In this document: positions 8,245 through 38,132 of the stretch, piece after piece | Layout: each line of letters begins with the position of its first letter | Position numbering within the stretch: position 1 is the first letter of the stretch | IMG/VR virus record: IMGVR_UViG_3300031772_000075 | Origin: a virus | Length of the DNA: 43,188 nucleotides | Direction: 5' to 3' (one strand) | The notes under the pieces: generated by a model | Seen by the model: the letters and a program-made list of their open reading frames with translations, nothing else | Told to the model about the DNA's origin: nothing | The model's database searches: none | Position numbers and translations under genes: made by a program

Positions 8245-8713
8245 CGAGTACGAGCTCACCCTGAAGACCGGGGAGCACATAGAAGTGTCCGAGTTCGCGT
8301 TCGAACGGATCCCGTCGCTCGCGCCGATCGCCGACCTCATCCCTTTCGCGGACGTCCTTCGAGGCTGCGCCGTCCTCTCGCGCGAGAGCGTCGAGGCGGC
8401 GAAGATGGGGCACGACCTGGAGCTCCGGAAGACGGTTAGGGACCCGCTCGCCGGGCTCCTGAAGGTCCTCCGGCCGGAGTGCGTCCACATCGGGGACTGC
8501 ATCATGGCCGACCGCCGGGTTTGCACGTCCAAGAACGTCACGGGGAAGCGCCGGATTCCGCCCTGCTGGGAGCACGCCTCCGAGGGGGAGCTTCAGCAGG
8601 TCGCCACCGCGGCCGTCCTGGCCTGGGCGGCCGGGCGGAGGGTCATAATCGTCGTTCCCGACCCTCAAGCTCTTCAAGCAGCTCTGTCATCAGCCGCTCC
8701 GCGCGCGGGCTGA
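8231..8713 (+). CDS. hypothetical protein (160 aa)
   Basis: ATG at 8231 overlapping the preceding gene's end. The C-terminal ~70 nt overlaps the convergent DnaJ gene, so the true end is uncertain. Confidence 0.4.
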   Translation: MILPDEYELTLKTGEHIEVSEFAFERIPSLAPIADLIPFADVLRGCAVLSRESVEAAKMGHDLELRKTVRDPLAGLLKVLRPECVHIGDCIMADRRVCTSKNVTGKRRIPPCWEHASEGELQQVATAAVLAWAAGRRVIIVVPDPQALQAALSSAAPRAG

Positions 8714-9713
8714 CGTCCTTCGACGCCCTCATCTTGAAAACGACCGTCAGGTCCCCGTCCTGCCCTGACGGGTTCTTCCACGCGCCCGGGGCGCACGACT
8801 GGCCTCCTCCAGGCGGGACTCTGACCGGGACCGCCCGGCCGTCCGGCATCCGGACGACCGTCTCCCCTCCCTTCACCATCTCCCTCACCCCTATCTCGGC
8901 CGTCGTGAACAGGGCATCGCCGCGAGCCCACCAGTTCTCGGAGTCCCGGACCTCGACCGACAGGATGAGGTCCCCGGGAGGGGATCCGACCTTCCCGAGC
9001 CCCTTCACCTTCATGTCCTGCCCGTTGCGGAGCCCCTTCGGGATCGTGACCGTTATCTCTCGCTGAACGGACTCGCTCCCGCTACCGTGGCACTCGGCGC
9101 ACTTGTTCACCTGCACGCTCCCGGAGCCACCGCACTGCCGGCACTGCCGCACGGCCGGGTTTCCTGCCACCATGTCCACGACCCGCCCGTTCCCGCTGCA
9201 CGTCGGACAGACCGCGCGCGTCGCGCGGGTGGAGCCGCACTTTCGGCACGGGCGGGTGTCTCCCCGGTCGAACCGGACGACCTTCTTCGTCCCGGTCAGG
9301 GCCTCCTCCATCGGGATGGTGACCGTGATGTGGACGTCGGCCCCCTCCGCTGGGACTGGCTTCGCCTTCCGGGCGAAGTCGGCCACGTTCCCTCCGTGGA
9401 ACGGCCCGAACGGGTCGAAGTGCTGGTTGAAGACGGAGTTCAGGTCTTCCATCGTCACCCTGAAGTTGTGACGGCCCGGCCGAGGGGGCGGGCGCGGGGG
9501 AGGAGACGCGTCCTCGTGTCCGAACATGTCGAACCGGGCCTTCTTCCCCTCGTCGGTCAGGACTTGGTGGGCGGTGTTCACCTCCTTGAACTTTGACGCG
9601 TCTCCTCCCCTGTCCGGATGGTGCTCGGCCGCGAGCTTCCGGAACGCCTTCTTGATATCGTCCTGCGAGGCCGTCCTCGGGACGCCAAGGACTGAGTAAT
9701 GGTCTTGGCTCAA
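8643..9713 (-). CDS. dnaJ: DnaJ-like chaperone (J domain, Cys-rich CxxCxGxG repeats and C-terminal domain)
   Basis: N-terminal J domain with HPD (YSVLGV...AAEHHPDRGGD). Four CxxC zinc-finger repeats (CRKCGSTRA..CPTCSGNG..CRQCGGSG..CAECHGSG). TTG start with AAGGAAG 5 nt upstream. Confidence 0.85.
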   Translation of the reverse strand: MSQDHYSVLGVPRTASQDDIKKAFRKLAAEHHPDRGGDASKFKEVNTAHQVLTDEGKKARFDMFGHEDASPPPRPPPRPGRHNFRVTMEDLNSVFNQHFDPFGPFHGGNVADFARKAKPVPAEGADVHITVTIPMEEALTGTKKVVRFDRGDTRPCRKCGSTRATRAVCPTCSGNGRVVDMVAGNPAVRQCRQCGGSGSVQVNKCAECHGSGSESVQREITVTIPKGLRNGQDMKVKGLGKVGSPPGDLILSVEVRDSENWWARGDALFTTAEIGVREMVKGGETVVRMPDGRAVPVRVPPGGGQSCAPGAWKNPSGQDGDLTVVFKMRASKDVSPRAERLMTELLEELEGRERRL

Positions 9714-9760: not shown

Positions 9761-12730
9761 ATGCTCCTGCAGCAGCTCGACGACAAGGTGGACACGCATC
9801 GCGACTGGATGCAGAGCTATAAGTTCCACCTCGTCACGACGATCGACAAGCTGCGGAAGCTCGTGGACCTCTGTATTTCGCGGAAGAGCTGCTCGCTCGA
9901 CCTGGAGACCACCGGGCTGGACAACCGGGTCTACCAGGACGAGTTCTTCGGGGACGGGAAGAAGACAGTCTGGGGGATGAGGACGGTCGACAAGATCGCC
10001 GGCGTGTGCATCTCCTTCGACGGCTATAACGGGTACTACGTCCCCTTCGGCCACTACCCGGAGGACTCGGGGAACGTGCCGTGGGACGAGGGGTGGGCCG
10101 AGATCACGCGGCTCGTCAACAACTGCAGGATCATCTTCCACGGGTCCAAGTTCGACTGCGAGTTCCTTTACCCCGTCACCGGGAAGGACCATTGGAAGCT
10201 GGACGAGTATGAGGACACGTACCTCATGTCCAAGGTCATCTCGCCCCTGAAGCAGAGCCCGAACGGCCTGAAGCAGCTGTCCAAGATCCACTTCAACGTG
10301 GAGATGCTTGAGCTCTCCGACCTCTTCACTCCCGAGAAGATGGAGCAGATGAAGAGGGACAAGCAGGGCTACAACTTCGCCGTCCTGCACCCGAAGGAGG
10401 GCCTTGAATATGGCTGCTCCGACGGCATCTTCACCTACAAGCTGAAGGACACGCTCCATCCGAGGCTCTCCGAGGCGGATCAGCGGATATATGACCTGGA
10501 GAAGTCGTTCTGCAACGTCATCCGAGAGCTGGAGCGCAACCGGGTCCACGTCGACGTGGACCGGGTCGAGCACCTTCGGACCGAGTGCACCGCCGAGATG
10601 CAGAAGGTCGGGGACGCCATCCGCGAGGTCATCGAGGCCAAGACGGGCAAGACGGGGCGCTGGATCACCCTGAACGTCGGAGCCGTCCAGCAGCTGTCGG
10701 AGGCCCTCATCACCGACTCCGAGGGCATGCGCTTGAAGCCCACGCCGGAGATGATCGCCGCTGAGGGCGAGGGTGAGCACGGCGGCGGCGGAGGCGGAGG
10801 CGAATCGGAAGAGGGTGAGGACGGCGGCGGCGAGGACGAAAAGCAGTACAGCCTCAAGGACGAGGCTCTGAAGTCCATGCACAAGGTCTATGGAGCGAAG
10901 TTCTCGGTGGAGCGCGAGGGTGTCCTCGACAAGGACGGTGGCCCGAAGCGCGAGAGCATATTCGAGCTCATCCTGGAGTGGCGGCATTACCAGAAGATGC
11001 TCGGCTCGTACCTGAACCCGCTTTCGAAGGCCGTCGACAAGTACGGGGACGTCCGCCCGAACTTCAGCCAGATAGGCACTGACACGACGCGGCTCTCGTC
11101 CAAGGCCGGAAAGATCGCGGACGGCTACTCGGGCATCAACTTCCAGGGCATCCCGCGCGACTCGGACGAGGACAAGCCGGACCTGTTCAAGCAGCTCCGG
11201 ACATGCATCATCCCGCGCCCAGGCTGGATGCTCGTGAAGCTCGACTATGCGGGCGAGGAGCTCCGCGTTGTCACGAACCTCTCGGGTGACCCTATCTGGA
11301 CTAAGTCCTTCCTCTATGAGGACGGGGACGTTCACAGCATCACCGCGCGCACGCTCTTCGGCAAGAAGGACGTCAACAAGGACGAGCGCAACCGTGGTAA
11401 GCGCTGCAACTTCGCGTTCATCTACGGCGGCGGGGCCGGCGCCATTCAGCGCAACGTCGGCTGCTCCATCGAGGAGGCCTCCAAGCACATGGAGAACCTC
11501 CGGAACGACGTCCCGGTCCTCATGGGGTACGTCGAGTTCCAGAAGAAGTATGCCCACAAGCACAAGTGCATCTACACGGCGTTCGGCCGCCGCATCCCTA
11601 TTCCGACGATTGACTCGCCGATCCGCGGCATTCGGTCGAAGGCCGAGCGCTGCGCCATCAACTACACCATTCAGGCGACGTCTGCGGACGTCCTGAAGTT
11701 CGCCATGTGCTACGTGGACAAGCAGCTCCGCAAGCTTGGGTGGAAGGACCGCTGCCGCTACGTCCTGACCGTGCACGACGAGGTCGTGTACGAGATCAAG
11801 CCCGAGTACGTCCAGGAGATTGTCCGCAAGCTCGACGAGTGGATGACCGAGCCGTGGCGGCTCCCGAAGGCCCACGGGCGCCCGTGGGACGTTCCGCTCT
11901 TGACCGAGCCGGGTGTCGACTACAACTGGAAGGCTCGGTATGACTACTTCGCGATGGTCGACGGGGCGGCCGTGTCCAAGAAGGACATCGCCGAGGACGG
12001 GACGTACAAGGGCAAGCTGAAGAAGGACCAATACTTCGCGGACGGTCGCGTGTACCAGAAGGTCCCGGACTTCCTGGAGAACTGGATAAAGAGGATCCCC
12101 GTGACTTCTGAACCAAGGTCGGAGAGGTCCGAGGAGCAGGCCCCCGTGGAGCCTCCGCCCGAGCCCGCGCCCGAATCCGTGAAGGCTTCCCCGCCGGAGC
12201 CCCCGCCAGTCCCGTCGGAGCCAGTCCCGTCGTCCCCTGACGTTGACCTGAAGCCGGAGCCCGCCCCGGAGCCCGCGGAACAGGAAGCACCTGTCCCGAG
12301 GACCGCAGGCGTCCACTCGTTCTCCATGGACGACTTCGACGTTCCCATGCCGACCTCGAAAGAGGCGAACGGGACGTCGGGTCCGGCGGTGCCGGCACCG
12401 CCTCAGGTCGAGATAGACCTGTCCATGGACCCGGGCTTCGGCTCTCAGGAGCCCCGGTCAGAGGCCCACTCCAGGCCAGAGCCCGCCAGCAAGCCGGAGA
12501 GGAAGCTCAAGGTCGTCCCGGACGACGTTGCGGTCGTCCGCTGGGTGATGCGTGCCGAAATGTGCAAGCGAAACCAGAAGAAGCTCCACGCCATATGCGT
12601 CCTCACCGAGGGCGACCGTCCTCTTCGCGTTGTGGACTCGGACGGGAACATCCTTATCGAGGAGGCCTCAGGGATCCTCGTCGACCCCGTCACCTTCCCC
12701 GTCATTGCGAGCCTTTTCGGCCTGGGCTGA
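9761..12730 (+). CDS. polA: family-A DNA polymerase (3'-5' exonuclease plus polymerase; no 5'-3' exonuclease domain) with long Pro-rich C-terminal extension
   Basis: Exo I motif LDLETTGLD near the N-terminus. Pol A motif B (RCAINYTIQATSADVLK) and motif C (VLTVHDEVVYE) are present. There is a Gly/Glu-rich low-complexity insert (EGEHGGGGGGGESEEGEDGGGEDE). About 200 aa after the polymerase core are PEP/PAP-rich, followed by a small C-terminal domain. Confidence 0.9.
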   Translation: MLLQQLDDKVDTHRDWMQSYKFHLVTTIDKLRKLVDLCISRKSCSLDLETTGLDNRVYQDEFFGDGKKTVWGMRTVDKIAGVCISFDGYNGYYVPFGHYPEDSGNVPWDEGWAEITRLVNNCRIIFHGSKFDCEFLYPVTGKDHWKLDEYEDTYLMSKVISPLKQSPNGLKQLSKIHFNVEMLELSDLFTPEKMEQMKRDKQGYNFAVLHPKEGLEYGCSDGIFTYKLKDTLHPRLSEADQRIYDLEKSFCNVIRELERNRVHVDVDRVEHLRTECTAEMQKVGDAIREVIEAKTGKTGRWITLNVGAVQQLSEALITDSEGMRLKPTPEMIAAEGEGEHGGGGGGGESEEGEDGGGEDEKQYSLKDEALKSMHKVYGAKFSVEREGVLDKDGGPKRESIFELILEWRHYQKMLGSYLNPLSKAVDKYGDVRPNFSQIGTDTTRLSSKAGKIADGYSGINFQGIPRDSDEDKPDLFKQLRTCIIPRPGWMLVKLDYAGEELRVVTNLSGDPIWTKSFLYEDGDVHSITARTLFGKKDVNKDERNRGKRCNFAFIYGGGAGAIQRNVGCSIEEASKHMENLRNDVPVLMGYVEFQKKYAHKHKCIYTAFGRRIPIPTIDSPIRGIRSKAERCAINYTIQATSADVLKFAMCYVDKQLRKLGWKDRCRYVLTVHDEVVYEIKPEYVQEIVRKLDEWMTEPWRLPKAHGRPWDVPLLTEPGVDYNWKARYDYFAMVDGAAVSKKDIAEDGTYKGKLKKDQYFADGRVYQKVPDFLENWIKRIPVTSEPRSERSEEQAPVEPPPEPAPESVKASPPEPPPVPSEPVPSSPDVDLKPEPAPEPAEQEAPVPRTAGVHSFSMDDFDVPMPTSKEANGTSGPAVPAPPQVEIDLSMDPGFGSQEPRSEAHSRPEPASKPERKLKVVPDDVAVVRWVMRAEMCKRNQKKLHAICVLTEGDRPLRVVDSDGNILIEEASGILVDPVTFPVIASLFGLG

Positions 12731-12949
12731 CGCGTCCCGGAACCTCCGGGCGGACTCCGTGTACCCCGAGCACGCCGCCGTCAGGACTGCGATGTTGTGG
12801 AGGGTTATGGCCCGCATGTCCGGGTCCATAGGGCGGTCCAGGAGGGACCTCTCCCTCGCCACGAGGTCCTCAAGCGTCTCGCATATCTGAACGGGTCCGA
12901 TGCCCTCCGCTATCAGCAGGGCCTCCCTCTTCTCGTCCTCCGTCATCGG
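12668..12949 (-). CDS. possible small protein (93 aa) in the 250-bp gap between polA and dcd
   Basis: ATG start, gene-like codon usage (high GC3, Glu/Asp/Leu codons). It is an internal start of a longer antisense ORF (12668-13696) whose upstream part is rejected. The C-terminus overlaps the polA 3' end. Confidence 0.3.
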   Translation of the reverse strand, partial: PMTEDEKREALLIAEGIGPVQICETLEDLVARERSLLDRPMDPDMRAITLHNIAVLTAACSGYTESARRFRDASAQAEKARNDGEGDGVDEDP

Positions 12950-12982
12950 CATTTCCGACGGTACTCGCTGTACGGTCGCCCA

Positions 12983-13663
12983 ATGGTGAACGGCGGCATT
13001 CTGTCGGGGTCCGAAATCAGGGCGGCGGTCGAGAGGGAGGACATTGTCATCTCGCCGTACGACCCGGAGAGGTTCAACCCCGCGTCGTATGACCTGGCTC
13101 TCGGAAGGCATGTCGCGGTCTACCGCGCCCTCGTCCAGGCTGGGAGCGCTGACGACTGGGACTGCGACGGCATGCGCGAGGACGGAACGTTCGGCGTCCC
13201 CGGCGAGCGCCTGCGCCCGAAATACGCGCCGGGGGAAAAGATAGCGGCGAAGGCCGGGCAGAACTGTCTGGACGCCGCCAGGGAAAACCGGGTCGCCCGC
13301 TACGAGATGGACGACCGCGGCCTGGTTCTTCTTCCTGGGGTTGGGTACCTCATGCACACCGAGGAGCGAATCAAAACGGAGCGATACGTCCCCATCATCG
13401 ACGGCAAGTCGTCCATAGGGCGCCTCTTCTGCTTCGTCCACGTCACCGCCGGCTACGGGGACCCAGGGTTCGACGGCCAGTACACGCTTGAGGTGGCGGT
13501 CCTCCACCCGCTCATCGTCTACCCTGGGATGCGCTTTTGCCAGATGCGCTTCCACACGCTCGTCGGCGAGTTCAAGAGCTATCAGGACAGCGGCAACTAC
13601 AAGGGGGACCTGGCTAAGGGTCCCATTCCTTCGCAGTCGTGGAAGATGTTCACCAAGGCATGA
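12983..13663 (+). CDS. dcd: dCTP deaminase (dUTPase-superfamily, Dcd-like)
   Basis: N-terminus MVNGGILSGSEIRAAVEREDIVISPYDPERFNPASYDLALG. Core IDGKSSIGRLFCFVHVTAGYGDPGFDGQYTLEV matches Dcd (..SSLARLGL..H.TAGFIDPGF.G..TLE.). ATG at 12983; the tabulated upstream extension from 12797 has no support. Confidence 0.8.
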   Translation: MVNGGILSGSEIRAAVEREDIVISPYDPERFNPASYDLALGRHVAVYRALVQAGSADDWDCDGMREDGTFGVPGERLRPKYAPGEKIAAKAGQNCLDAARENRVARYEMDDRGLVLLPGVGYLMHTEERIKTERYVPIIDGKSSIGRLFCFVHVTAGYGDPGFDGQYTLEVAVLHPLIVYPGMRFCQMRFHTLVGEFKSYQDSGNYKGDLAKGPIPSQSWKMFTKA

Positions 13664-14226
13664 CGCGGAAGGAGCCCGAGCCCGTCGACGCGTCACAGTT
13701 CTTCGAATACGGGAAGGTCGTGCTTGAGGACACGGACCCGGTGGGCCGGACGGCCTCCATCAGAATGCAGATGCCGAACTGCCTGTTCCAGGCCGTCACG
13801 CCGTCGCTCCTGGGCGCGGGCTTCATAGACGAGTTCAAGGTGGCGGAGCCCCTGGCCGTGTGGATACCCCAGGTGACGCCGGAGCGCCTTTCGTTCATGG
13901 GGAAGCAGCTCGACCAGGCCGACGTGAGGATCAACACCGCCATCGCGCACCAGATGGGCGTCGTCGCCCAGACGTTCGCCAAGGTCGCCCAGCTCTTGAC
14001 GAACCCTGCGGACCTTATCCCGATGCTCCCGCTCGGGACGTACGTGTCCCTCCGATTCCGCTGCCGCATCGACGACGTCCCGAAGGTCCTGTTCGGCGTT
14101 CAGGAGACCGCCGTCGTCGGCGTCCCCGAGTTCCAGTGGGCGCTCGCGTGCGTGCTGGCTCAGGCCCTCATGGAGTCGGAGCGCTGGCCTCATCGGCCTC
14201 TGATCGGGCCGGTACCAGCGCTTTGA
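13660..14226 (+). CDS. hypothetical protein (188 aa), coupled to dcd
   Basis: ATG at 13660 overlaps the dcd stop (ATGA). No recognisable motif. Confidence 0.45.
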   Translation: MTRKEPEPVDASQFFEYGKVVLEDTDPVGRTASIRMQMPNCLFQAVTPSLLGAGFIDEFKVAEPLAVWIPQVTPERLSFMGKQLDQADVRINTAIAHQMGVVAQTFAKVAQLLTNPADLIPMLPLGTYVSLRFRCRIDDVPKVLFGVQETAVVGVPEFQWALACVLAQALMESERWPHRPLIGPVPAL

Positions 14227-15611: not shown

Positions 15612-15742
15612 GGCGTCTCCGACATACGGTACGCTCGGAATTGCTTGCAACAATCGGCATTAGCGTGCTAAACTGCACAGTATATCCTTTGGGGGGTATA
15701 CTGCGCGAGCGCGTCGCCGACAGTTTGACGGGAGAGGTGGCA
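15612..15742. promoter_or_regulatory. divergent intergenic region with candidate sigma-70-like promoter elements
   Basis: 131-bp AT-richer gap between divergent genes. On the + strand: TTGCAA, 17 bp, then extended -10-like TGcTAAACT; also TATACT near 15706. GGAGAGGTGG lies 2 nt before the ATG at 15743. Confidence 0.3.
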
Positions 15743-16435
15743 ATGGAAATCGGAAAGGTGGGCCAGCAGGCCAAGACTATTCGCGTACCCGGCAAGCCTT
15801 TGAAGAGGATCCCGGAAAAGCTGCCCTGGCCGCGGCATTCAAAGGCGGACGTGGACGAGAGCGGGAAGGTCATGCCGTCCGTCCCGCTCGGGATCGACGT
15901 CGTCGCAAAGAAGCTCGACATCACGAAGATCGTGCACAAGTTCTTCCGCGTGGAAGGGTACTCGATGGAGGAGCTCCTACAGGAGGTCTTCGTCGCTATC
16001 ATCCACAAGAACTGCACGCGCTCGGCCCACAATCCGAACAAGAGCTCTTTCGGCCACTATGTCTACATGGTGGCCAACAACGTGTGCGTCAACCTGGTGC
16101 ACAAGAAGCGCCGCTACGATCGTGAGAAGGACTCCATCGACGCGCCCGTGAGCGCCGACGACGCGAGGTCCATCCTCGACACCGTCGAGGACCTGAACGC
16201 CCGGCAGGAGCCCGACGCGTTCACGGAGAAGATGGAGGAGTTCGAGCACGCCCTCCGGATGAAAGGAGAGTGGGACCTGGCCCGCTACATCCGCGCTGTC
16301 CGCTCCGGGGCGAGCGCCGACGTCGTCCGCGAGTCCCTGTCGTTCGGTGAGCGCAAGGTCACCACCAAGACAATCCGCGACTTCAAACAGCGGATTCCGG
16401 CCGCCGTCCGGCTCATCGCAGCGACGCTGAGCTAG
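15743..16435 (+). CDS. ECF-like (sigma-70 family region 2 + region 4) sigma factor
   Basis: EELLQEVFVAIIHK...SSFGHYVYMVANNVCVNLVHKKRR resembles sigma region 2.1-2.2 of ECF sigmas (..F.TWLY.IARN..ID.LR.RRR). A C-terminal HTH-like segment is also present (ESLSFGERKVTTKTIRDFKQRI). ATG with a strong SD; the tabulated TTG start at 15641 was rejected. Confidence 0.6.
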   Translation: MEIGKVGQQAKTIRVPGKPLKRIPEKLPWPRHSKADVDESGKVMPSVPLGIDVVAKKLDITKIVHKFFRVEGYSMEELLQEVFVAIIHKNCTRSAHNPNKSSFGHYVYMVANNVCVNLVHKKRRYDREKDSIDAPVSADDARSILDTVEDLNARQEPDAFTEKMEEFEHALRMKGEWDLARYIRAVRSGASADVVRESLSFGERKVTTKTIRDFKQRIPAAVRLIAATLS

Positions 16436-18027: not shown

Positions 18028-18353
18028 TGGACCTATGTGAAGCCTGGCGCCTTTTCGGCCGCGACCTACCCTCCATCGTGGCCGACGCCCGGGCCCGGAA
18101 GAGGGATCAGAGGATGCCCTTCTTGGACGGCCTACTGGAGGAGGCAAAGAAGACCAGGAAGGCTCTGCTTGCCAAGCACCACCCGGACCGGGGTGGGGAC
18201 CCCTCGCAGTTCAAGCGGGTCGAGGACGCCTTCCAGGCCATTGAGAAGGGGACCGAGGAGGCCAGACAGGGCTTCCGGGAGGCCGACGAGAAGCGGGTGG
18301 CGGACCGGGAGAGCAAGCGCTCAGTCTTCATTGACGTGGACCCGCTAAAGTGA
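18024..18353 (+). CDS. J-domain-only protein
   Basis: KALLAKHHPDRGGDPSQFKRVEDAFQAIE is a J-domain helix II-III with HPD. No Zn-finger or C-terminal domains. Confidence 0.65.
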   Translation: MMDLCEAWRLFGRDLPSIVADARARKRDQRMPFLDGLLEEAKKTRKALLAKHHPDRGGDPSQFKRVEDAFQAIEKGTEEARQGFREADEKRVADRESKRSVFIDVDPLK

Positions 18354-19123
18354 ACATTCTTTCATGCGTCCAGTTCCAGCCTCGTTTCGCCAGATGCCCG
18401 GCGGACGTGTCGGACAACGTCAGGCGCTCAGCTCCCCTCATACACGAGGCGGGCCGCGTCGGGTCCCAGCTCATCGTCTTTCCCGAGCTGGCCTTCACCG
18501 GATACTCGTTCCTCGACCGCGACCAGGCCGCCGCCGTCGCCGAGGCGCTCGACGGCATGACGTTCCGGGCCATGCGGGCGGTCGCCGTTGAGCTGAAGGC
18601 CTACGTCGCCTGGGGCTACGTCGAGTCCGCGGAGGGCAGGCTTCACAACTCCTGCTCCATGGTCGGTCCGGACGGCGCCCTCGTCTCCAGTTACCGGAAG
18701 ATCAACCTTTGGGGCAACGACTTTCTTTGGGCCTCACCCGGGAGGGAGCCTGCCCCGATAGTCCAGACCGAGCTTGGTCGGACGTCGGTGATCATATGCC
18801 GGGATCTTCGGGACAAGGTCCCGACGAACATCCCCATCATGGCTTCGAAGAAGCCTCAGCCCTTCTGGAAGGCCCAGAAGGTGGACGTCGTGGCCGCCTG
18901 CCTCAACTGGGGGAAGGGAGGGTTCCCGTCGACGACCTGGATGGACTTCGCCGCCGACAACGAGTGCACCCTGGCCGTCGCCAACCGTTGGGGCGCCGAG
19001 GAGAACGGGACCTTCCGTCAAAGCTTCGGGCAGGGCGGCTCCTGCGTCATCCGCCCCGACTGGACGGTCCACACCGGCGGCTTGAAGTTCAACCAGGACT
19101 GCGTCGTCTCCGCCAGCTATTGA
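18350..19123 (+). CDS. carbon-nitrogen hydrolase (nitrilase superfamily)
   Basis: Catalytic triad contexts are present: LIVFPELAFTGY (Glu), YRKINLW (Lys), VIICRDL (Cys). GTG start overlapping the previous stop (GTGA). Confidence 0.75.
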   Translation: MNILSCVQFQPRFARCPADVSDNVRRSAPLIHEAGRVGSQLIVFPELAFTGYSFLDRDQAAAVAEALDGMTFRAMRAVAVELKAYVAWGYVESAEGRLHNSCSMVGPDGALVSSYRKINLWGNDFLWASPGREPAPIVQTELGRTSVIICRDLRDKVPTNIPIMASKKPQPFWKAQKVDVVAACLNWGKGGFPSTTWMDFAADNECTLAVANRWGAEENGTFRQSFGQGGSCVIRPDWTVHTGGLKFNQDCVVSASY

Positions 19124-20780: not shown

Positions 20781-21602
20781 ATGGAGCCCGACAAGCTTTC
20801 CCTTTGCCTCAAGCGCCTGGCGTCCTTCCTGGACCACGGTGCCGTGACCAGGGAGGCGGCGGTCTCCGCCATCAACGGCCTCATCCTCGCCACGGACAAG
20901 TCTCTCGCCCTCGCGGTGAGGGAAGCACTCCATGCCGAGATAGAGAAGCTCATGCCCGGGAAGTTTGAGCTGTACGACACCAACCCGGACGGCAAGGGGT
21001 GGAGGGCCGGCTATATCTCCTTCGGCCTCGGCCCGTCGCAGTGGAAGGACGAGGGAATCATCGGCGGAGTCCTGATTCAGGCCGACTATAACCCGAAGCT
21101 CTTCCGCTCCGAGGCGCCGGAGCCCGCGGACCCGAAGTTCCAGCACTCCCAGGGCGGCGGGATCCTGGAGCTCACGGTAACGGGATGCTATTACAACAAG
21201 CTCCAGGGCGGCGGGTGTGACTCGGACACGGCCGTGGGCGTCGTCGGCCTCAGCGGCGCCGATGTCTACGTCGACGTCGACGAGAGCGTCTTCCAGACCG
21301 ACATCGTCGACCCCGGGATGACGGTGGCCGGACTGGACAAGATCATCCGGGAAATTTCGTCCAACCCTCCGGACTATGCGCAGTCCGAAGGGCGCAAGAG
21401 GAAGAGCCGGGCTCCGACGGGCAGCCCCCAGTCGCTCATGGCGTGGCTCATTCAGCAAAAGCGGTCGGACGTCGGACAGTCCGAGATCGACGCCCTTGCG
21501 AACGCCCAGTCGGCGAAGTCCGGCAAGGCCGTCGGGAACGCGAAGAAGGACATAGCGGACTTCTTCCGAAGCCGGCAGTGGCCCATCAACCCGAACGCCT
21601 AG
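20781..21602 (+). CDS. hypothetical protein (273 aa)
   Basis: Balanced protein-like composition. The opposite-strand 336-aa ORF (20715-21725) is R/L/G/V-rich antisense and was rejected. Confidence 0.55.
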   Translation: MEPDKLSLCLKRLASFLDHGAVTREAAVSAINGLILATDKSLALAVREALHAEIEKLMPGKFELYDTNPDGKGWRAGYISFGLGPSQWKDEGIIGGVLIQADYNPKLFRSEAPEPADPKFQHSQGGGILELTVTGCYYNKLQGGGCDSDTAVGVVGLSGADVYVDVDESVFQTDIVDPGMTVAGLDKIIREISSNPPDYAQSEGRKRKSRAPTGSPQSLMAWLIQQKRSDVGQSEIDALANAQSAKSGKAVGNAKKDIADFFRSRQWPINPNA

Positions 21603-21901
21603 CTCTGGGAGACTAGCTCGACCAGCAGCGTGTTCGGAAGGTCCTTGATGGCCTTCTGCACTACCTCTCGCTCCTCGCCGAACACGTACCAGACCTTCGG
21701 AAGACCGTCCTCGCCGACCTTGCACACGGCCTTCCTGCCGCCACCGGCGGTGACCTGGCGCACGGTGAACTCGGCCTCCTCTCTGTAGCCCTTCAGCGGC
21801 TTCAGGAGGGCCGTGATCTCAAGGGTCACCTTGTCACTGACAGGACAGCTCCATATCACGGTCCTTCTACTGTCGGGAGCCCGGGATTTACGCCCCGGCA
21901 C
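21599..21901 (-). CDS. possible small protein (about 100 aa) downstream of MazG
   Basis: The C-terminal 85 aa are protein-like. A GTG start 2 nt after the MazG stop is preceded by AGGT. The N-terminal part of the tabulated ORF (to 22057) overlaps MazG in another frame and was rejected. Confidence 0.3.
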   Translation of the reverse strand: MPGRKSRAPDSRRTVIWSCPVSDKVTLEITALLKPLKGYREEAEFTVRQVTAGGGRKAVCKVGEDGLPKVWYVFGEEREVVQKAIKDLPNTLLVELVSQS

Positions 21902-21902
21902 T

Positions 21903-22403
21903 TTACCTGAGGGGCTTCCCGTAGTATCCGTCCCGGGCTCGTTGAATGACGACCTCAACTTTGTCGTTGACGAGCTTGGACAGGTTGATGTCAAGGACGT
22001 GGGCGAGCACGTGCGAGTACACGATGACGTCCGGAAGCTCCGACTTGACGGCCTCAAGGACCCTGGCCTGGTCCTCGCCGTTCCGGCGGGCCTTCACGAT
22101 GGCGTTCGCCATCTCGCCGGCCTCCCCGCATATGCCGAGGGTGTAGTACATGGCGGGGTCGTTCCCGTAGGCGTCCTTCTCACCCATCCGCTTGGACTCG
22201 CAGATGGCCTTGTGTGAGCGGATGATCGATGCGGACAGGTCTTCGTCGGCGTCTTCGAGAGAGTCCAGAAGCTCCTTCATCCGGCGGTCGACGTCGTCCT
22301 CCAGCCTGGACATGAGGAGGGTGCTGTGGAAGGCTTCGCGGACCTTCTGCAGCTCGTCGATGCGGGCCCGGATCTCGCTCTTCGTCTCGACAAGGCCGTT
22401 CAT
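21903..22403 (-). CDS. mazG: MazG-like nucleoside-triphosphate pyrophosphohydrolase
   Basis: YYTLGICGEAGEMANAIVKARRNGEDQARVLEAVKSELPDVIVYSHVLAHVLDINLSKLVNDKV is a typical all-alpha MazG core (EVGEL.E...EElGDvL.y...la..lgid). The ATG overlaps the upstream HD gene's stop (ATGA). The tabulated 306-aa ORF N-terminal extension was rejected. Confidence 0.7.
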   Translation of the reverse strand: MNGLVETKSEIRARIDELQKVREAFHSTLLMSRLEDDVDRRMKELLDSLEDADEDLSASIIRSHKAICESKRMGEKDAYGNDPAMYYTLGICGEAGEMANAIVKARRNGEDQARVLEAVKSELPDVIVYSHVLAHVLDINLSKLVNDKVEVVIQRARDGYYGKPLR

Positions 22404-23053
22404 ACCGTGAACCTCTGGGCGAACCCCTCCGCCATGTGCCCGTACAGCGAGGCCAGGGAGGGCCGGTGATCGAAGTTCCTCGGTTTTGTGCCTGCGGCTT
22501 CGTTGAGCTTCTTCGCCATACTCTTCAGGTCCTCGATCATGCGGCCGAAGAACGGGTCGATCTCGGAGTTCCCGCGCTTCTTCTCCCGCCACATGTACTG
22601 GTATAGGGACATGAAGTCGGCGGCCTTCACCACGTCCTTGGCATAGTCGCCCTTCCAATGGTGCGTGTGGCCGAACGACGTGATGTGAAGGTGAACCTCG
22701 TCGAGGAGTGAGCGGACTTCGACCGGGAGGGAGGACGCTAGGCCTTGCTCTGCTTTGTTCACGGCCGCCCGGAACTCCTCGGACGAGTATTTGAAGGTGC
22801 GGACGATGTCTCCGGAGAGGCACTCTAGTGCGTCGTGCGTGAGCGCGTGCTGCATGATGAGCGCGTCCAGCTCCTTCGGCCCGACCAGCTTCCGGTGGAT
22901 CATCATGCTGTAGACCGACACCCAGTACATGTGCGTCGAGTCGTTCTCCGGCACCGTCACCGGGATGCTGCTATAGCGGGTTACATAGTCGAGCCGCCTT
23001 ATGTCACTTGAGGCGGCCTCCAGCAGTGGCTTCCAGTCGAGGATCTTCTCCAT
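22400..23053 (-). CDS. HD-domain 5'-deoxynucleotidase (YfbR-like)
   Basis: ENDSTHMYWVSVYSMMIH aligns with YfbR ENVSEHSLQVAMVAHALA. ALIMQHALTHDALECLSGD aligns with LLAMYHDASEVLTGD. KDVVKAAD aligns with KSLVKQAD. Confidence 0.7.
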   Translation of the reverse strand: MEKILDWKPLLEAASSDIRRLDYVTRYSSIPVTVPENDSTHMYWVSVYSMMIHRKLVGPKELDALIMQHALTHDALECLSGDIVRTFKYSSEEFRAAVNKAEQGLASSLPVEVRSLLDEVHLHITSFGHTHHWKGDYAKDVVKAADFMSLYQYMWREKKRGNSEIDPFFGRMIEDLKSMAKKLNEAAGTKPRNFDHRPSLASLYGHMAEGFAQRFTV

Positions 23054-23237
23054 CCTCCGAGAGTACAGCGGCTGCGTCCACCTGCTCCGGCGTCAGGTCG
23101 TTGATGGTGACTGACGCCCCCCGGGCCGCGAACTCGCCGAGGAGCTGCTCGGCCTCGGGCCTTGTCATCATCGCGTGACGGACGACCGTGTCGCCCTCGT
23201 CGTCGACGTACTCGATGGAGTGGAACCTCTTGCTCAC
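23004..23237 (-). CDS. possible small protein (77 aa), GTGA-coupled to the pcp-like gene
   Basis: A GTG start overlaps the pcp stop. The tail is protein-like (VSKRFHSIEYVDDEGDTVVRHAMMTRPEAEQLLGEF...). The remainder of the tabulated 267-aa ORF is an R/P/G-rich artefact. Confidence 0.3.
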   Translation of the reverse strand: MSKRFHSIEYVDDEGDTVVRHAMMTRPEAEQLLGEFAARGASVTINDLTPEQVDAAAVLSEDGEDPRLEATAGGRLK

Positions 23238-23881
23238 CGTGCACCGTGCTGGGACCGGTACCACTGGGAGACCTGCCCGACGAGGGCCACCGAAGCCTCG
23301 ACGATGCCGGAGAACGAGGCGGTCGACCAAAGCTCGTCCTCGATGACGCCGAAGTCGTTTGGAAACGCGACGTGTATGAAGCCGGCGGCCACGAAGTGAG
23401 GCTGGGGGACGGTCGCCAGATGGTGCAGGACTCCGTACATGAGGGAGTTGCAGACGTGGGTTCCGGCCGAATAGGAAAGCTTGCTGGACACGCCCATTTC
23501 GTTCAGCCTTTCCACGAGGCTGGCGGCCGGGATGGTGGGCTCGTACGCTGGAGGGCCTCCTCGCACGGCGGGCCTGTCCTGGACGGGGATTCGGCTGTTG
23601 TCGCCCATCGGGGAGCGCTCGACGTTGATCGCGAACCGCTCTACCCTCAGGGGGTCGTTCTTCTGAGTGGCTCCGAACATGAGGACGGCGTTCGGCTGAA
23701 AGGCCCCCATCTCCGTGACGAGGATCTCGGTGCTCTTGCCATAGAGCTGAGGGAGGACCAGGCCGCGGACCTCGACTCCCGGGACGGAGACCGCCCCCTC
23801 GTGCCACAGCTTGGCCAGGTCGCCGCTCGGCGAGCGCCTAATCCCCCAGATTGGCTCGAAGCCGGTCAGGACGACCTTCAC
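23234..23881 (-). CDS. pcp: pyroglutamyl-peptidase I (pyrrolidone-carboxylate peptidase, C15)
   Basis: VKVVLTGFEPIW...ERFAINVERSPMGDNSRIPVQDRPAVRGGPPAYEPTIP...SYSAGTHVCNSLMYGVLHH matches Pcp throughout (MKVLVTGFEPF...ERVAIN.DDARIPDNEG..P.D.PI...GPAAYFSTLP...SNTAGTFVCNHLFYG.MH). GTG start with AGGA upstream. The tabulated N-terminal 108 aa were rejected. Confidence 0.8.
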   Translation of the reverse strand: MKVVLTGFEPIWGIRRSPSGDLAKLWHEGAVSVPGVEVRGLVLPQLYGKSTEILVTEMGAFQPNAVLMFGATQKNDPLRVERFAINVERSPMGDNSRIPVQDRPAVRGGPPAYEPTIPAASLVERLNEMGVSSKLSYSAGTHVCNSLMYGVLHHLATVPQPHFVAAGFIHVAFPNDFGVIEDELWSTASFSGIVEASVALVGQVSQWYRSQHGAR

Positions 23882-25055: not shown

Positions 25056-25505
25056 TCAGTTCGCGGCGTGATGAAGCTGCACGGGCGCCTTCCGCCGCGC
25101 CTTCCGCCCGCCCTGCTTACGCTTCACGGCAGTGTAGGCGACGTTCTCCGGCTGGAAGTGCCTCTCCAACGTGGCCCTTGCCTTCGCCTCGTCGAACGAC
25201 TTGCAGCTGAACACGTCCATGGAGAAGTGGCGCCGGAGGGGCCACACGTGGACGGAGATGTGGCTCGTCCCGATCATGCAAATCCCGGAGATTCCGCCCT
25301 CGTCCTGGAAGACGTCGCCCGTGAGCTTTTTCGGCTCAAGCTTCACCTTCTTGAACAGCGGACCGAAGATCAGCTGCATGTCGAGGACCTTCACCAGGTC
25401 GAGCATCAGGGTCGTGAGCCCTGCCTTGGAAAATGCTGCTTCGATCCTTCGCTCCGGGACTTGTCCGTCGGCGATGAGGTGAAGTCCGTCGATCACATTG
25501 GCCAT
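25056..25505 (-). CDS. speD: S-adenosylmethionine decarboxylase proenzyme (small pyruvoyl-dependent SpeD/SpeH type)
   Basis: GISGICMIGTSHISVHVWPLRRHFSMDVFSCKSF matches the processing-site region of the small bacterial/archaeal type (..V.ESHL.IHTWPE.GYAA.DVFTCG). About 150 aa, as expected for this type. Confidence 0.7.
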   Translation of the reverse strand: MANVIDGLHLIADGQVPERRIEAAFSKAGLTTLMLDLVKVLDMQLIFGPLFKKVKLEPKKLTGDVFQDEGGISGICMIGTSHISVHVWPLRRHFSMDVFSCKSFDEAKARATLERHFQPENVAYTAVKRKQGGRKARRKAPVQLHHAAN

Positions 25506-35455: not shown

Positions 35456-36154
35456 ATGAAGACCTGTCCGAAGTGCGGGGGTACAAAGGATCTGAACGAA
35501 TTTTCGCCAAGCCGTCAGCATGTAGCGAGCTGGTGTCGTTCGTGCACAAATAAAACAACGCGCTTCGTCCGACTTCGGAACAAAATGGTGGCCATCGCCC
35601 GATATTCTGACGGCAAAATGGCGTGCTCTTGTTGTAGTGAACCTCGCATTGAGTTCTTGGTCATAGACCATCCGAACGGAGGAGGTGGAAAGCACAGAGC
35701 CTCTATCGGACATAATATTTACAGTTGGCTCAAAAAAGTCGGGTATCCGGACGGATTCCGGGTCTTGTGCTCGAATTGTAACTCGTCCATCGGCGCTTAC
35801 GGATACTGTCCTCATTCTGGTAGGACAAACTTTCCGGACGTTGTTCCCGAGATCAGACCTAGAGCTTTTCGTCGAGGTATGGGGCACCCCGGCCGGAAGC
35901 TGGACGATATCTCAGTTGCGGACATTCGGGAAGGTCTATGTCTCGGCGTCAGTCTCTCTTCTTTGTCCCGGAAGCACGGGGTCTCCATCCGGACGATCCG
36001 GAAGATCCGTGATGGGGAGGCGTGGGTCCATGCCGACGAGCCTCAGAACGCCCTCCACGAGCCTAATTCTCTCCTGCATAATATGGGTCGCGATGGTGAA
36101 GTATCTCAGTCCCCACATCTCCAGCATGAACTTAACGTAGCTGTCGATCCTTAG
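35456..36154 (+). CDS. HNH homing-endonuclease-like protein (N-terminal zinc ribbon, HNH core, C-terminal HTH)
   Basis: CPKCGG...CRSC zinc ribbon. The HNH core is IDHPNGGGGKHR...VLCSNCNSS. The C-terminal segment is helix-turn-helix-like (SLSRKHGVSIRTIRKIRDGEAW). The gene lies in a lower-GC island. The last ~70 codons overlap the convergent kinase gene. Confidence 0.75.
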   Translation: MKTCPKCGGTKDLNEFSPSRQHVASWCRSCTNKTTRFVRLRNKMVAIARYSDGKMACSCCSEPRIEFLVIDHPNGGGGKHRASIGHNIYSWLKKVGYPDGFRVLCSNCNSSIGAYGYCPHSGRTNFPDVVPEIRPRAFRRGMGHPGRKLDDISVADIREGLCLGVSLSSLSRKHGVSIRTIRKIRDGEAWVHADEPQNALHEPNSLLHNMGRDGEVSQSPHLQHELNVAVDP

Positions 36155-36577
36155 GATGCCATCCCATGTTGTCTTCTCACGGACACCATCGTCCACGAGG
36201 GTCTCAGATGACGGTCGGATGAAAAAGATGATCGCTTCGTTCAGTCGCAAGGACTCGACGTACTCGGCCAGCTCCTTACGCCCCAATATCTCTCGGAAGC
36301 ATGTTGTGTACTCGCATGCGTAAGCCAGGTTGTCAAAGCTCCTGTCGGCGACGAACGCCTGGTGCTTACGCTCCTCAGAAACCTGGCGTTCGAAGATTTT
36401 CTTCTGATACGCGTCAACTCGCTTTATGTCGTGCCTAATGGAGACGATGTCCGCCTCCTCCTCTGCCATGACAGCCCGTGCCACCTCGGTTAGGAGCGGT
36501 GTCCCCCATTTGTCGGCAACGTACCTGGCCATGGTCGTCTTGCCCGTGCTGTGCGCGCCGATGAAGTAAATTCGCAA
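35936..36577 (-). CDS. P-loop NTPase of the NadR/AAA_28-like nucleoside/nucleotide kinase family
   Basis: RIYFIGAHSTGKTTMARYVADKWGTPLLTEVARAVMAE matches the AAA_28 N-terminus (i.i.G..sSGKTTLa.aLA..lg...v.EyaRe). The TTG start at 36577 is preferred over the tabulated ATG at 36727, which would overlap the divergent gene by 100 nt. Intermediate GC. Confidence 0.6.
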   Translation of the reverse strand: MRIYFIGAHSTGKTTMARYVADKWGTPLLTEVARAVMAEEEADIVSIRHDIKRVDAYQKKIFERQVSEERKHQAFVADRSFDNLAYACEYTTCFREILGRKELAEYVESLRLNEAIIFFIRPSSETLVDDGVREKTTWDGILRIDSYVKFMLEMWGLRYFTIATHIMQERIRLVEGVLRLVGMDPRLPITDLPDRPDGDPVLPGQRRETDAET

Positions 36578-36626
36578 GGTCCGGGACGGTACAGCGATAG
36601 GCTTTCTTTTAGACGGGATCAGCAAG

Positions 36627-37028
36627 ATGCCCACAAACGTCACCGTCACCGCGTCCGTCCAGTGGACTCCTCCGAGCGCCCCGGCGAACTCCGGCACGGC
36701 GACCTTCAACGTCGTGGCGTCCGTCAACGCCCAGAACGTCGGGCAGATCGACGTTCAGACGAGCGACCCGCCCGGCGCGATCTTTCCGATGCCGTTCGGC
36801 TCGGTGGCTACGGCGAAGGTCGTCTGCATCAAGAACATGATGTCGTCCGAGGTCGGCGTCCGCGTCAACGGCCATGTGACGAACGACTTCCGCGTCCCGG
36901 CCGGCGGCATGATCATGTACGCAGCGCCGGTCGGTCCGAACTCTGAGCCGCTCTCCGCCGTGTCCATCGTGACGACCGCCAGCCCGGCGGCGATCGAAGC
37001 AGTGCAGTTCTTCATCTACGGAGACTAG
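36627..37028 (+). CDS. hypothetical Thr/Ser/Val/Asn-rich (beta-rich) protein (133 aa)
   Basis: ATG. Very high GC3 with genome-typical codons. An opposite-strand ORF (36755-37015) was rejected. Confidence 0.5.
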   Translation: MPTNVTVTASVQWTPPSAPANSGTATFNVVASVNAQNVGQIDVQTSDPPGAIFPMPFGSVATAKVVCIKNMMSSEVGVRVNGHVTNDFRVPAGGMIMYAAPVGPNSEPLSAVSIVTTASPAAIEAVQFFIYGD

Positions 37029-37031
37029 CGC

Positions 37032-38132
37032 TCACACGGCCTCCGGAAGGTACTCGGAGAGGGTACGTCCGACCATGCGGCCACGGAGCTTCTTGAGAGC
37101 CTTCTCCTCTATCTGCCGGATTCTCTCACGGGACAGGTCGTAGCGGTCAGCGACCTCCTGGAGCGTCAGCTGGCCCGTGTCGTCGATTCCGAACCTGTGC
37201 CGGATGACGCGGGACTCGAACGGGTTGAGGCCTGAGAGGAGCGAGAGCAGCTCGTCGTTGGCCTCCGCCGAGAACAGGCTGTCGAGCGGGCTCGGGAACG
37301 TCTCCGACGTGAGCGTGTCCAGGAGGCAGAATCCCTCCTCCTCACCTGCCGGGGCGTCGAGGTGAAGGACCCTCTGCCGGCTCAGGAGCGCGGTCAGGAC
37401 CTTCTCGACGCTGATCTTGGCCGCCTTCGCCATCTGGTCCGGGTCCATGCCCGTCCCGTTCTCCGCCATGTGCCCGCCGTCCAGGCGCGAGAGCTTTTGG
37501 GCGAGCTCGCTCATGTGGACGGGGATGCGTATCGGGCCCTCCTTGTCCGAGACGGCCCGCTTGACGTGATGCCGAATCCACCAGACGGCGTACGTCCCGA
37601 ACCGGAACCCGCGGTCGACGTCGAACCGGTCGACCGCCCGCATGAGCCCGATGTTCCCCTCCTGAATAAGGTCGCCCAGGGTCTGGTGATGGCAAAGCCT
37701 GGCGTACTTCTTCACGATCGTGACGGTGAGGCGAAGGTTCGCCGTCACAAACTCGTTCTTGATGCGCTCTCGCCTGGCGTTCAGGCCTCCGACGCGACGG
37801 TCCTTAGACCCGACCGCGGCCGTCAGGCACTCCTGAAACCAGGTCCGGCCGGAGTCCGTGAGCCGGACGAACCGGACGACGTCCCTGTGAAGCCCGGACT
37901 TGTTGAACAGCCTGGCGGGAAGGTGAACCTCGTCCTCCTTCCCTGCGGCGGCCCTCAGGCTTGACTCGCTGGCCTTGTCCTTCAGGAAGGCCGCCACCAT
38001 GTCCGACTCGACGGTCATGAGCTTTCGGAACGTCGCCGTCTCCTCCTCGAAGGTCGGGACGGAGACCTCAGACATGCTGGAGAAGTACTTCGTAAGCGCG
38101 TTCCCGGGAGCGGTTTTCGCGTTCGAGGACAT
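37032..38132 (-). CDS. RpoD/RpoS-like sigma-70 family sigma factor (regions 1.2/2/3/4)
   Basis: ANLRLTVTIVKKYARLCHHQTLGDLIQEGNIGLMRAVDRFDVDRGFRFGTYAVWWIRHHVKRAV is near-identical in pattern to the RpoD region 2 consensus. Region 4.2 is LTLQEVADRYDLSRERIRQIEEKALKKLR. ATG preceded by AGGTGG. Confidence 0.85.
   Translation of the reverse strand: MSSNAKTAPGNALTKYFSSMSEVSVPTFEEETATFRKLMTVESDMVAAFLKDKASESSLRAAAGKEDEVHLPARLFNKSGLHRDVVRFVRLTDSGRTWFQECLTAAVGSKDRRVGGLNARRERIKNEFVTANLRLTVTIVKKYARLCHHQTLGDLIQEGNIGLMRAVDRFDVDRGFRFGTYAVWWIRHHVKRAVSDKEGPIRIPVHMSELAQKLSRLDGGHMAENGTGMDPDQMAKAAKISVEKVLTALLSRQRVLHLDAPAGEEEGFCLLDTLTSETFPSPLDSLFSAEANDELLSLLSGLNPFESRVIRHRFGIDDTGQLTLQEVADRYDLSRERIRQIEEKALKKLRGRMVGRTLSEYLPEAV

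Follow-up and report, generated by a model that had tools for sequence, protein, structure and literature searches.

A conserved HD–MazG gene pair in an uncultured jumbo-phage lineage and its possible role in shaping nucleotide pools

Why would a phage place a deoxynucleotidase-like enzyme and a pyrophosphohydrolase in overlapping genes, and does such a pair serve the synthesis of ordinary DNA or of DNA in which a base has been replaced? The question is raised by a stretch of 43,188 bp (IMG/VR virus record IMGVR_UViG_3300031772_000075; hereafter the window), a whole metagenome contig that holds the replication, recombination and accessory block of an uncultured jumbo phage. The two genes, here called HD and MazG, lie on its minus strand:

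22400–23053, minus strand: HD, YfbR-type HD-domain 5'-deoxynucleotidase-like phosphohydrolase of 217 amino acids (aa), PF12917; first gene of the pair
21903–22403, minus strand: MazG, MazG/DCTPP1-like all-alpha (d)NTP pyrophosphohydrolase of 166 aa; second gene of the pair
22400–22403, minus strand: ATGA start/stop overlap, the TGA stop of HD with the ATG start of MazG

A preliminary description of this DNA had joined the pair to a dCTP deaminase, a NUDIX protein and a P-loop kinase in a module of five, and had likened the set to that of the uracil-DNA phages PBS1/PBS2. Here we show that HD and MazG form a genuine conserved two-gene cassette inside a conserved replication block, and we propose, with moderate confidence, that they act as a pool-sanitising or pool-shaping device during the synthesis of phage DNA built from canonical A, C, G and T. 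Linkage, homology and indirect evidence on the DNA give no support to the five-gene module or to the PBS1-like uracil-DNA scheme.

Linkage of HD and MazG across the phage lineage

Window genes were called by GC3, and their proteins were scanned against Pfam, PHROGs and NCBIfam. The relatives compared (about 20) comprise 16 IMG/VR loci recovered by alignment-based scans, contigs from ENA, JGI and Logan, and two contigs of metagenome-assembled genomes (MAGs). Roughly 15–25% of each genome was sampled, as about ±10–13 kb around HD, PolA, the SNF2 helicase and the dual-specificity phosphatase. Single-protein scans of IMG/VR with DnaB or sigma-70 returned almost nothing useful.

The 4-nt overlap named in the preliminary description can be read directly from the sequence, with a Shine-Dalgarno-like AGAGG motif 8 nt upstream. 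The ATGA arrangement suggests translational coupling, and HD and MazG are probably co-translated. Because the window's table of open reading frames (ORFs) contains four 4-nt overlaps, one such overlap is in itself ordinary; the linkage goes beyond chance because adjacency, mostly with overlap too, is kept across the divergent relatives. HD stands beside MazG in all of the roughly 20 relatives examined, the two MAG contigs included. Ten of them overlap by 4 nt (or 1 or 8) (L002, L005, L007, L008, L009, L011, L014, L015, L018 and L021), two have a gap of about 10 nt, one pair is convergent and one is divergent with about 1.2 kb between the genes; in L010 the gap is about 520–560 nt, with an uncertain MazG start. 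The GC content of the relatives spans 0.35–0.66, and retention of the pair over this whole range means that it is not an adaptation to GC bias. A scan of the operon region for promoters and terminators gave nothing beyond the shuffled expectation.

The cassette belongs to a longer conserved order, which tblastn searches of the fetched loci with the window proteins revealed as SNF2–DnaB–primase–DnaJ–PolA–(dCTP deaminase)–sigma-like–CN hydrolase–MazG/HD–(peptidase)–ferritin–SbcC–RecA–RuvC; in the fetched loci of relatives, giant structural ORFs end the block to the left of SNF2. Six kilobases around the pair had no nucleotide match in INPHARED, and the nearest PolA is 34% identical (LR745208.1); no close relative of the lineage is in culture or deposited. 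Homologues of HD fall into 126 clusters, with PF12917 in all (120/120 among the homologues listed), and those of MazG into 192; the two sets occur on contigs of up to 445 kb. HD was found on 16 IMG/VR viral contigs of 36–436 kb and in 2 of 185,579 species-representative genomes, both as MAG contigs; outside this phage lineage the HD family is essentially absent. The element is a member of an uncultured jumbo-phage lineage with genomes of up to about 440 kb that occurs in soil, freshwater and other metagenomes, and HD–MazG behaves as a core gene pair of it. Its large contigs include IMGVR_UViG_3300037851_001277 (273,770 bp; PolA 84% identical), 3300032782_000001 (436 kb) and 3300012980_000004 (393 kb), and JGI 3300037851, ENA ERZ27247880 and SRR8670883 are among its source samples.

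The three other enzymes of the proposed module lie at a distance from the pair:

12983–13663, plus strand: dUTPase-fold dCTP deaminase (DCD), adjoining PolA at a distance of 9 kb from the pair
2742–3290, minus strand: NUDIX protein (51 bits)
35936–36727, minus strand: AAA_28/NadR-like P-loop protein, with the PHROG labels 'thymidylate kinase' and 'NMN adenylyltransferase'

All five gene calls of the preliminary description were right at the level of the family, with one reservation: the 'P-loop kinase' is AAA_28/NadR-like, and solved kinases match it at the P-loop only. The grouping into one module did not survive comparison. HD–MazG is present in all relatives, whereas DCD adjoins PolA in about half of them, NUDIX turned up in just the closest relative and one MAG contig, and AAA_28 in a single relative contig (IMG/VR 3300036987_000310; L018, the same as L076). 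Since NUDIX and AAA_28 are not conserved partners and DCD occurs in about half, the conserved unit is a two-gene cassette rather than a five-gene module. The genes around NUDIX and AAA_28 are of the macro/NADAR type, and a role of these two in NAD or ADP-ribose metabolism is equally possible; DCD, outside the conserved cassette, may supply the nucleotide pool on which the pair would act, or otherwise interact with it.

No HD–MazG (Rosetta-stone) fusion was found among long homologues of the two proteins. Long MazG homologues are fusions with Zn-ribbon or endonuclease-like modules, and long HDs bear an unrelated N-terminal module. This module, of about 80 aa, stands at the N termini of HD in P0031, P0044 and P0038 and also at the C terminus of MazG in P0250 (BLASTP E = 8e-11); its occurrence on both proteins indicates an accessory domain that attaches to either partner. 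Two small ORFs that flank the pair in the window, orf77 and orf86, were considered as free-standing copies of this module, an idea that found no support, as no similarity to it was detected. Separately, the MazG of a 393-kb relative (L007 10612–11325; P0187) carries a C-terminal Multiubiquitin domain (PF14452).

Families and active sites of the two enzymes

The identities and coordinates of HD and MazG given in the preliminary description were upheld by profile searches. HD reaches 68.3 bits with the Pfam YfbR-like family PF12917, well over the cut-off of 25.9, and 44.3 bits with HD_3. When a profile of 25 HD homologues was searched against the PDB, Escherichia coli YfbR came first (E = 9e-13, 51.4 bits) and is the best solved relative by sequence; HDDC2, Lin2634 and OxsA followed, with DatZ far behind (E = 0.008, 18.9 bits). 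The residues invariant among the 25 members are those of YfbR (R26=R18, H41=H33, H73-D74=H68-D69, E77=E72, D82=D77 and D146=D137), and at position 27 (YfbR W19) Tyr or Phe replaces Trp with the aromatic character kept. HD therefore retains the H..HD..D ligands, the catalytic Glu, the deoxyribose-contacting Asp and the Arg–aromatic pair of YfbR (PDB 2PAQ/2PAR/2PAU), which is the best match in sequence and fold; it differs from YfbR in being about 25% identical, phage-borne and coupled to MazG. The family also has invariant motifs of its own: VRTFKYSS, VVKAADFMSL and RExxRGNxE.

An AlphaFold (AF2) model of HD (predicted local distance difference test, pLDDT, 85) has YfbR, OxsA and DatZ as its top fold matches, which the fold search does not separate (template-modelling (TM) scores of 0.5–0.6 each). 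Alarmone hydrolases (small alarmone hydrolase) and phosphodiesterases appear in this search only at low probability, and HD accordingly looks like a nucleotidase rather than a (p)ppGpp or cyclic-nucleotide hydrolase, as the preliminary description had it. The NCBIfam YfbR equivalog model NF003009 gives HD 41.9 bits against a cut-off of 122. Judged by these scores, HD is classed as a member of the PF12917 family and not as an orthologue of YfbR. Its predicted activity is that of a dNMP phosphatase, with DatZ-like triphosphohydrolysis or OxsA-like stepwise hydrolysis as alternatives. The PHROG that fits HD best bears the label 'dATP triphosphohydrolase'; we regard this label as uninformative because another phage HD, which has a ThyA-like gene and a kinase gene as neighbours and no PurZ nearby, carries it too.

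The cultured-phage HDs nearest to the family profile are those of Xanthomonas phage phiXF1 (74 bits) and Acinetobacter phage Ab1-TPeters (58 bits), and in both a MazG of the window family is not found within 6 kb of HD. In Ab1-TPeters (L033 4134–6666; PP763253.1) an AAA_28 P-loop 'thymidylate kinase', a divergent ThyA-like gene (Thymidylat_synt 58 bits) and the YfbR-like HD stand in a row that looks like a cluster for pyrimidine modification or exclusion. The window HD represents a third, distinct clade of the phage YfbR family, joined in an operon to its own clade of MazG.

MazG consists of a helical extension (residues 1–60) and a catalytic four-helix core (about 63–160). It matches the PHROG family phrog_229, 'MazG-like pyrophosphatase', at 1.5e-9, and scores 18.4 and 18.5 bits with Pfam PF03819 and PF12643, below their cut-offs of 22 and 27; PF12643 is present in some close homologues in a precomputed table. 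These values mark it as a divergent member of the superfamily. The ExxE...ExxD metal motif is intact and invariant in the family alignment (E94, E97, E122 and D125), as are K104 and R107. A MazG profile searched against the PDB found iMazG at 1.6e-4, DCTPP1/RS21-C6 at 2e-3 and, marginally, MazZ of phage S-2L at 0.73. An AlphaFold (AF2) model (pLDDT 85) superposes on DCTPP1 and iMazG; its top Foldseek matches are mouse and human DCTPP1 (TM 0.70), and MazZ is not in the top 50. The window MazG thus has the four-helix core and ExxE...ExxD site in common with DCTPP1/RS21-C6 and the integron protein iMazG, but it is 22–27% identical to them and has an extra N-terminal helical hairpin of about 60 aa.

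Its family is a discrete clade, with 39 representatives at E<=1e-30 and then a drop to generic small MazG proteins at about 58 bits. Across the IMG/VR relatives MazG is 43–80% identical (56–80% in the closer ones), except in L010 (35%). This equals the level of PolA and RecA and exceeds that of HD (32–65%), and conservation on a par with PolA and RecA indicates a core role.

Substrates of the pair and the state of the phage DNA

From the chemistry of the two families, we infer that the cassette most likely disposes of deoxynucleotides stepwise, from deoxynucleoside triphosphate (dNTP) through monophosphate (dNMP) to deoxynucleoside. MazG, as a MazG/DCTPP1-like enzyme, would cleave a dNTP to dNMP and pyrophosphate; HD, as a YfbR-type enzyme, would then take the last phosphate, leaving a deoxynucleoside and inorganic phosphate. 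The uncharged nucleoside would exit the replication pool, making the removal irreversible. The substrates proposed are unwanted, probably pyrimidine, dNTPs, for which modified dCTP recycled from host DNA and dUTP from the phage deaminase are candidates. A phage-linked pair of the same two superfamilies that acts on the dNTP pool is known from S-2L (DatZ and MazZ, with PurZ) and other Z-genome phages; there the two enzymes do not work in series, as DatZ removes dATP and MazZ supplies dGMP, and the window proteins belong to different clades. If the proposed device is real, it would show giant phages policing their nucleotide pools.

Canonical DNA is favoured by avoidance of particular sites, by genes in relatives for Dam and for what looks like ordinary nucleotide supply, by the lack of modification enzymes seen, and by easy recovery from metagenomes. 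CTCGAG, an XhoI-type site, is the most under-represented hexamer of the window, with 0 occurrences against 24.5 expected; pooled with the two closest high-GC relatives (L005 and L056), the count is 0 against 53.4 (z = -10). Leu-Glu is written CTGGAG, CTTGAG or CTCGAA and never CTCGAG, a pattern that would imply a host restriction system of CTCGAG specificity. In the relatives of lower GC content it is GATC that is avoided (z down to -5.6). Such avoidance suggests that sites containing T and A are exposed to restriction, which disfavours genome-wide replacement of T, A or C as a means of protection. Relatives carry Dam methylases (L049 and L076) and, sporadically in the block, a thymidine kinase (L044) and FolD with PyrF (L022). 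In L016 (IMGVR_UViG_3300032233_002382, 308 kb), genes for IMP dehydrogenase GuaB (477 bits) and GMP synthase GuaA follow HD–MazG directly on the same strand (11124–13715), which may hint at a link in this relative between the cassette and the supply of purine (specifically guanine) nucleotides. Neither the window nor the sampled loci showed a hydroxymethylase, PurZ or a DNA-modification enzyme. Finally, the lineage assembles into contigs of 200–440 kb from many ordinary shotgun metagenomes, whereas uracil-containing (dU) and hypermodified DNA are refractory to standard library preparation (PMC8323127, PMC12686479).

Several points weigh against the sanitising device and its canonical DNA. Both characterised phage enzymes of PF12917, the dATPase DatZ (PMC12884076) and the dTMPase Dtm of DSS3_VP1 (PMC12697855), exclude a canonical nucleotide from a modified genome. 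Thymidylate synthase and dUTPase were not found in the window or in the sampled flanks of the roughly 20 relatives, and those relatives that were checked far enough all carry a C-to-U deaminase, with either of two folds. The preference of DCTPP1 and iMazG for (modified) dCTP cannot be carried over to the window MazG, because the residues of the base pocket are not obviously conserved. In particular the base-stacking tryptophans of DCTPP1, located by a comparison in register with the mouse sequence, are not kept, and the guess of a pyrimidine substrate is weak for that reason. Site avoidance is itself indirect evidence on the state of the DNA, and dU-DNA is only partly resistant at single-T sites (PMC12697855).

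It is doubtful that the DNA of this lineage contains a replaced or modified base, and the same doubt applies to a scheme in which the core cassette excludes one canonical nucleotide, most plausibly thymidine, while a DCD- or CDA-fold deaminase supplies dU and the phage packages dU- or otherwise base-replaced DNA. Its fullest form, which we consider unlikely, has MazG converting dTTP to dTMP, HD converting dTMP to thymidine, the deaminase supplying dUTP and the polymerase writing U or a derivative into a dU-DNA or T-modified genome. The known dU phages give this idea its substance. PBS1, DSS3_VP1 and PhiR1-37 all make dUTP by Zn-dependent dCTP deaminases of the CDA fold, and they destroy dT nucleotides by three routes: a PF06941 nucleotidase in PBS1, the PF12917 HD-type dTMP phosphatase Dtm in DSS3_VP1, and the HAM1 dTTP pyrophosphatase Dtt in PhiR1-37 (PMC12697855). 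The window would share their logic, a deaminase together with a dT-nucleotide hydrolase in the replication module; Dtm of DSS3_VP1 is in HD's own Pfam family and is paired with a dCTP deaminase, and PhiR1-37 pairs its dTTP pyrophosphatase with one (PMC12697855). Here HD, MazG and DCD share one replication block beside a PolA whose top matches are Taq and Klenow, and the DCD-less relative 3300036987_000310 carries elsewhere a Zn-type dCMP-deaminase-like gene, the fold of all known dU-phage dCTP deaminases. Motif and Pfam searches found no dUTPase, ThyA, ThyX or PurA/PurZ anywhere in the window, and no thymidylate synthase, ThyX, dUTPase, PurA/PurZ, RNR or DHFR in the sampled loci of the relatives. 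In Ab1-TPeters, moreover, a related HD adjoins the ThyA-like gene and the AAA_28 kinase.

Other findings count against it. The HD profile matches Dtm_DSS3_VP1 at 18 bits, limited to the HD motif, and the window's pyrophosphatase and deaminase have the MazG and DCD folds, not the HAM1 and CDA folds of the dU phages. DCD scores 97.2 bits with the equivalog model TIGR02274 (cut-off 92.8) and 122.8 bits with Pfam DCD. Among solved enzymes it matches 4XJC at 66, 2QXX at 56 and 1OGH at 49 bits, and monofunctional E. coli Dcd (1XS1), which forms dUTP, at 33; 1OGH is labelled bifunctional (dUMP-forming) in the match table, and 4XJC and 2QXX we take to be bifunctional dUMP-forming enzymes as well. By these scores the window DCD appears nearer to the dUMP-forming bifunctional enzymes than to E. 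coli Dcd; the literature on mono- and bifunctional enzymes yielded no sequence determinant usable here. About half of the relatives lack DCD at its position, whereas HD–MazG is universal. A thymidine kinase, as found in one relative, would be futile beside a dTMPase, and FolD occurs in another. T-containing sites are avoided (CTCGAG 0 against 53; GATC z to -5.6), and the lineage is abundant in standard metagenome assemblies, whereas dU-DNA failed Nextera library preparation (PMC8323127).

What the preliminary description had said on this point therefore divides. Its likeness to PBS1/PBS2 stands as a functional one but not in the proteins, as PBS1 has a Zn-dependent CDA-fold deaminase and a PF06941 nucleotidase. 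Its dU-DNA set does correspond to a published dU signature, a YfbR-family HD with a dCTP deaminase, against which stand the remote similarity to Dtm, the type of DCD, thymidine kinase and FolD in relatives, and site avoidance. It was right that the window shows no dUTPase or thymidylate synthase, and its suggested wider search for dut, thyA and thyX likewise found none in the sampled flanks of relatives, although thymidine kinase and FolD did appear there. Should a canonical nucleotide be the target after all, the pair would identify a new phage lineage whose DNA bases are replaced, and would serve as a sequence marker for such phages in metagenomes; and true base replacement would mean a new, independently evolved combination of enzymes for replacing a base genome-wide.

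A second alternative, also improbable, is that the pair degrades dNTPs and dNMPs broadly during host takeover, starving host or competitor DNA synthesis or discarding the breakdown products of host DNA, as T5 Dmp does. YfbR-type enzymes are general 2'-deoxy-specific nucleotidases, and E. coli YfbR takes all dNMPs; HD keeps all of the substrate-binding residues of YfbR, and T5 encodes, by annotation, a deoxynucleoside-5'-monophosphatase for this very purpose. The T5 enzyme is not an HD protein, however: its sequence is of the HAD type, a fold unrelated to the window HD. The pair moreover sits in a replication and recombination block rather than an early or takeover region, and broad degradation is hard to reconcile with the nucleotide synthesis genes of relatives (GuaB/GuaA in L016, PyrF, FolD and thymidine kinase).

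We think it very unlikely that the substrates are not dNTPs at all but alarmones or cyclic or defence nucleotides ((p)ppGpp, ddh-NTPs or dITP), which would make the cassette an anti-defence or stress-control device. MazG proteins of E. coli and of a cyanophage have been proposed to act on (p)ppGpp, and house-cleaning NTPases could in principle detoxify nucleotide analogues made by defence systems. The fold and residues of HD, though, match the 2'-deoxynucleotide-specific group of YfbR, OxsA and DatZ, with small alarmone hydrolases and phosphodiesterases as low-probability matches, and no anti-defence context was seen, a PADLOC scan not having been run.

Least probable is a Z-type genome, in which HD would be a dATP triphosphohydrolase like DatZ, the PF12917 dATPase of Z-genome phages (PMC12884076), MazG a MazZ-like (d)GTP pyrophosphatase, and 2-aminoadenine would replace adenine: linkage of DatZ and a MazG-like MazZ in S-2L (PMC8342488, PMC12884076), the PHROG label discounted above and the GuaB and GuaA genes of L016, suppliers of guanine nucleotides, speak for it, but searches of the window and of every sampled locus gave no PF00709 match or PurA motif, and hence no PurZ/PurA-family gene, the HD profile gives 19 bits on DatZ against 51 on YfbR, MazZ is a marginal match to MazG (E = 0.73, outside the top 50 by fold), PolA is Taq/Klenow-like with DpoZ outside its top 60, A-containing sites are avoided and relatives have Dam methylases.

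Neighbouring genes and other content of the window

HD and MazG, the presumed pool-shaping pair, are part of a same-strand run that is headed by a peptidase gene and reads PGP–orf77–HD–MazG–orf86:

23234–23881, minus strand: pyroglutamyl peptidase I-like (PGP; Peptidase_C15 101 bits, NF009676 121 bits)
23004–23237, minus strand: small conserved ORF orf77, 77 aa, upstream of HD and overlapping its start by about 50 nt
21599–21859, minus strand: small conserved ORF orf86, 86 aa, directly downstream of MazG

PGP adjoins HD in L007, L008, L014, L016, L019 and L077, and is a conserved neighbour without an evident functional tie to the pair. Counterparts of orf77 were called in the relatives L001 (1807–2040; ENA) and L005 (9817–10050; JGI), and counterparts of orf86 in the same two (L001 3185–3445; L005 11192–11452); both ORFs gave zero Pfam matches and are not assigned to a family.

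Other genes of the window include the following:

18350–19123, plus strand: CN hydrolase, 1–3 kb from MazG in most relatives
25056–25505, minus strand: AdoMet decarboxylase, conserved
3478–6201, plus strand: Major Vault Protein (MVP)-like protein, 907 aa, with the shoulder domain PF11978 (87 bits) and a vault repeat
6259–6723, plus strand: macro/DarG-like domain protein
8643–9713, minus strand: complete DnaJ
15641–16435, plus strand, and 37032–38132, minus strand: two sigma factors, of which one has full regions 2-3-4 and the other a weak region 2
41517–41936, minus strand: glycine-rich RRM RNA-binding protein

The window also holds the C terminus of the SNF2 helicase, DnaB, primase and PolA, together with ferritin-like, SbcC-like, RecA, RuvC-like and dual-specificity phosphatase genes; no tRNAs were found in it. 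The CN hydrolase is nitrilase-like or N-carbamoylputrescine-amidase-like, far under the equivalog cut-offs, and with the AdoMet decarboxylase it gives a hint of phage polyamine metabolism.

The MVP-like gene is unusual for a phage and is absent from the closest relative (L035). A homologue that is 39% identical stands beside a sigma factor in IMG/VR contig 3300029305_006221 (L025), and L077 encodes an SPFH-like protein of 642 aa, recognized by eye, that may relate functionally to the MVP-like protein. Further genes found in relatives are those for NADAR, superoxide dismutase, ankyrin-repeat and Dam proteins. In several of them, GIY-YIG, LAGLIDADG or Zn-ribbon endonuclease insertions lie around PolA and MazG, and in L040 (1270–4284) the SNF2 helicase is split by a LAGLIDADG intein.

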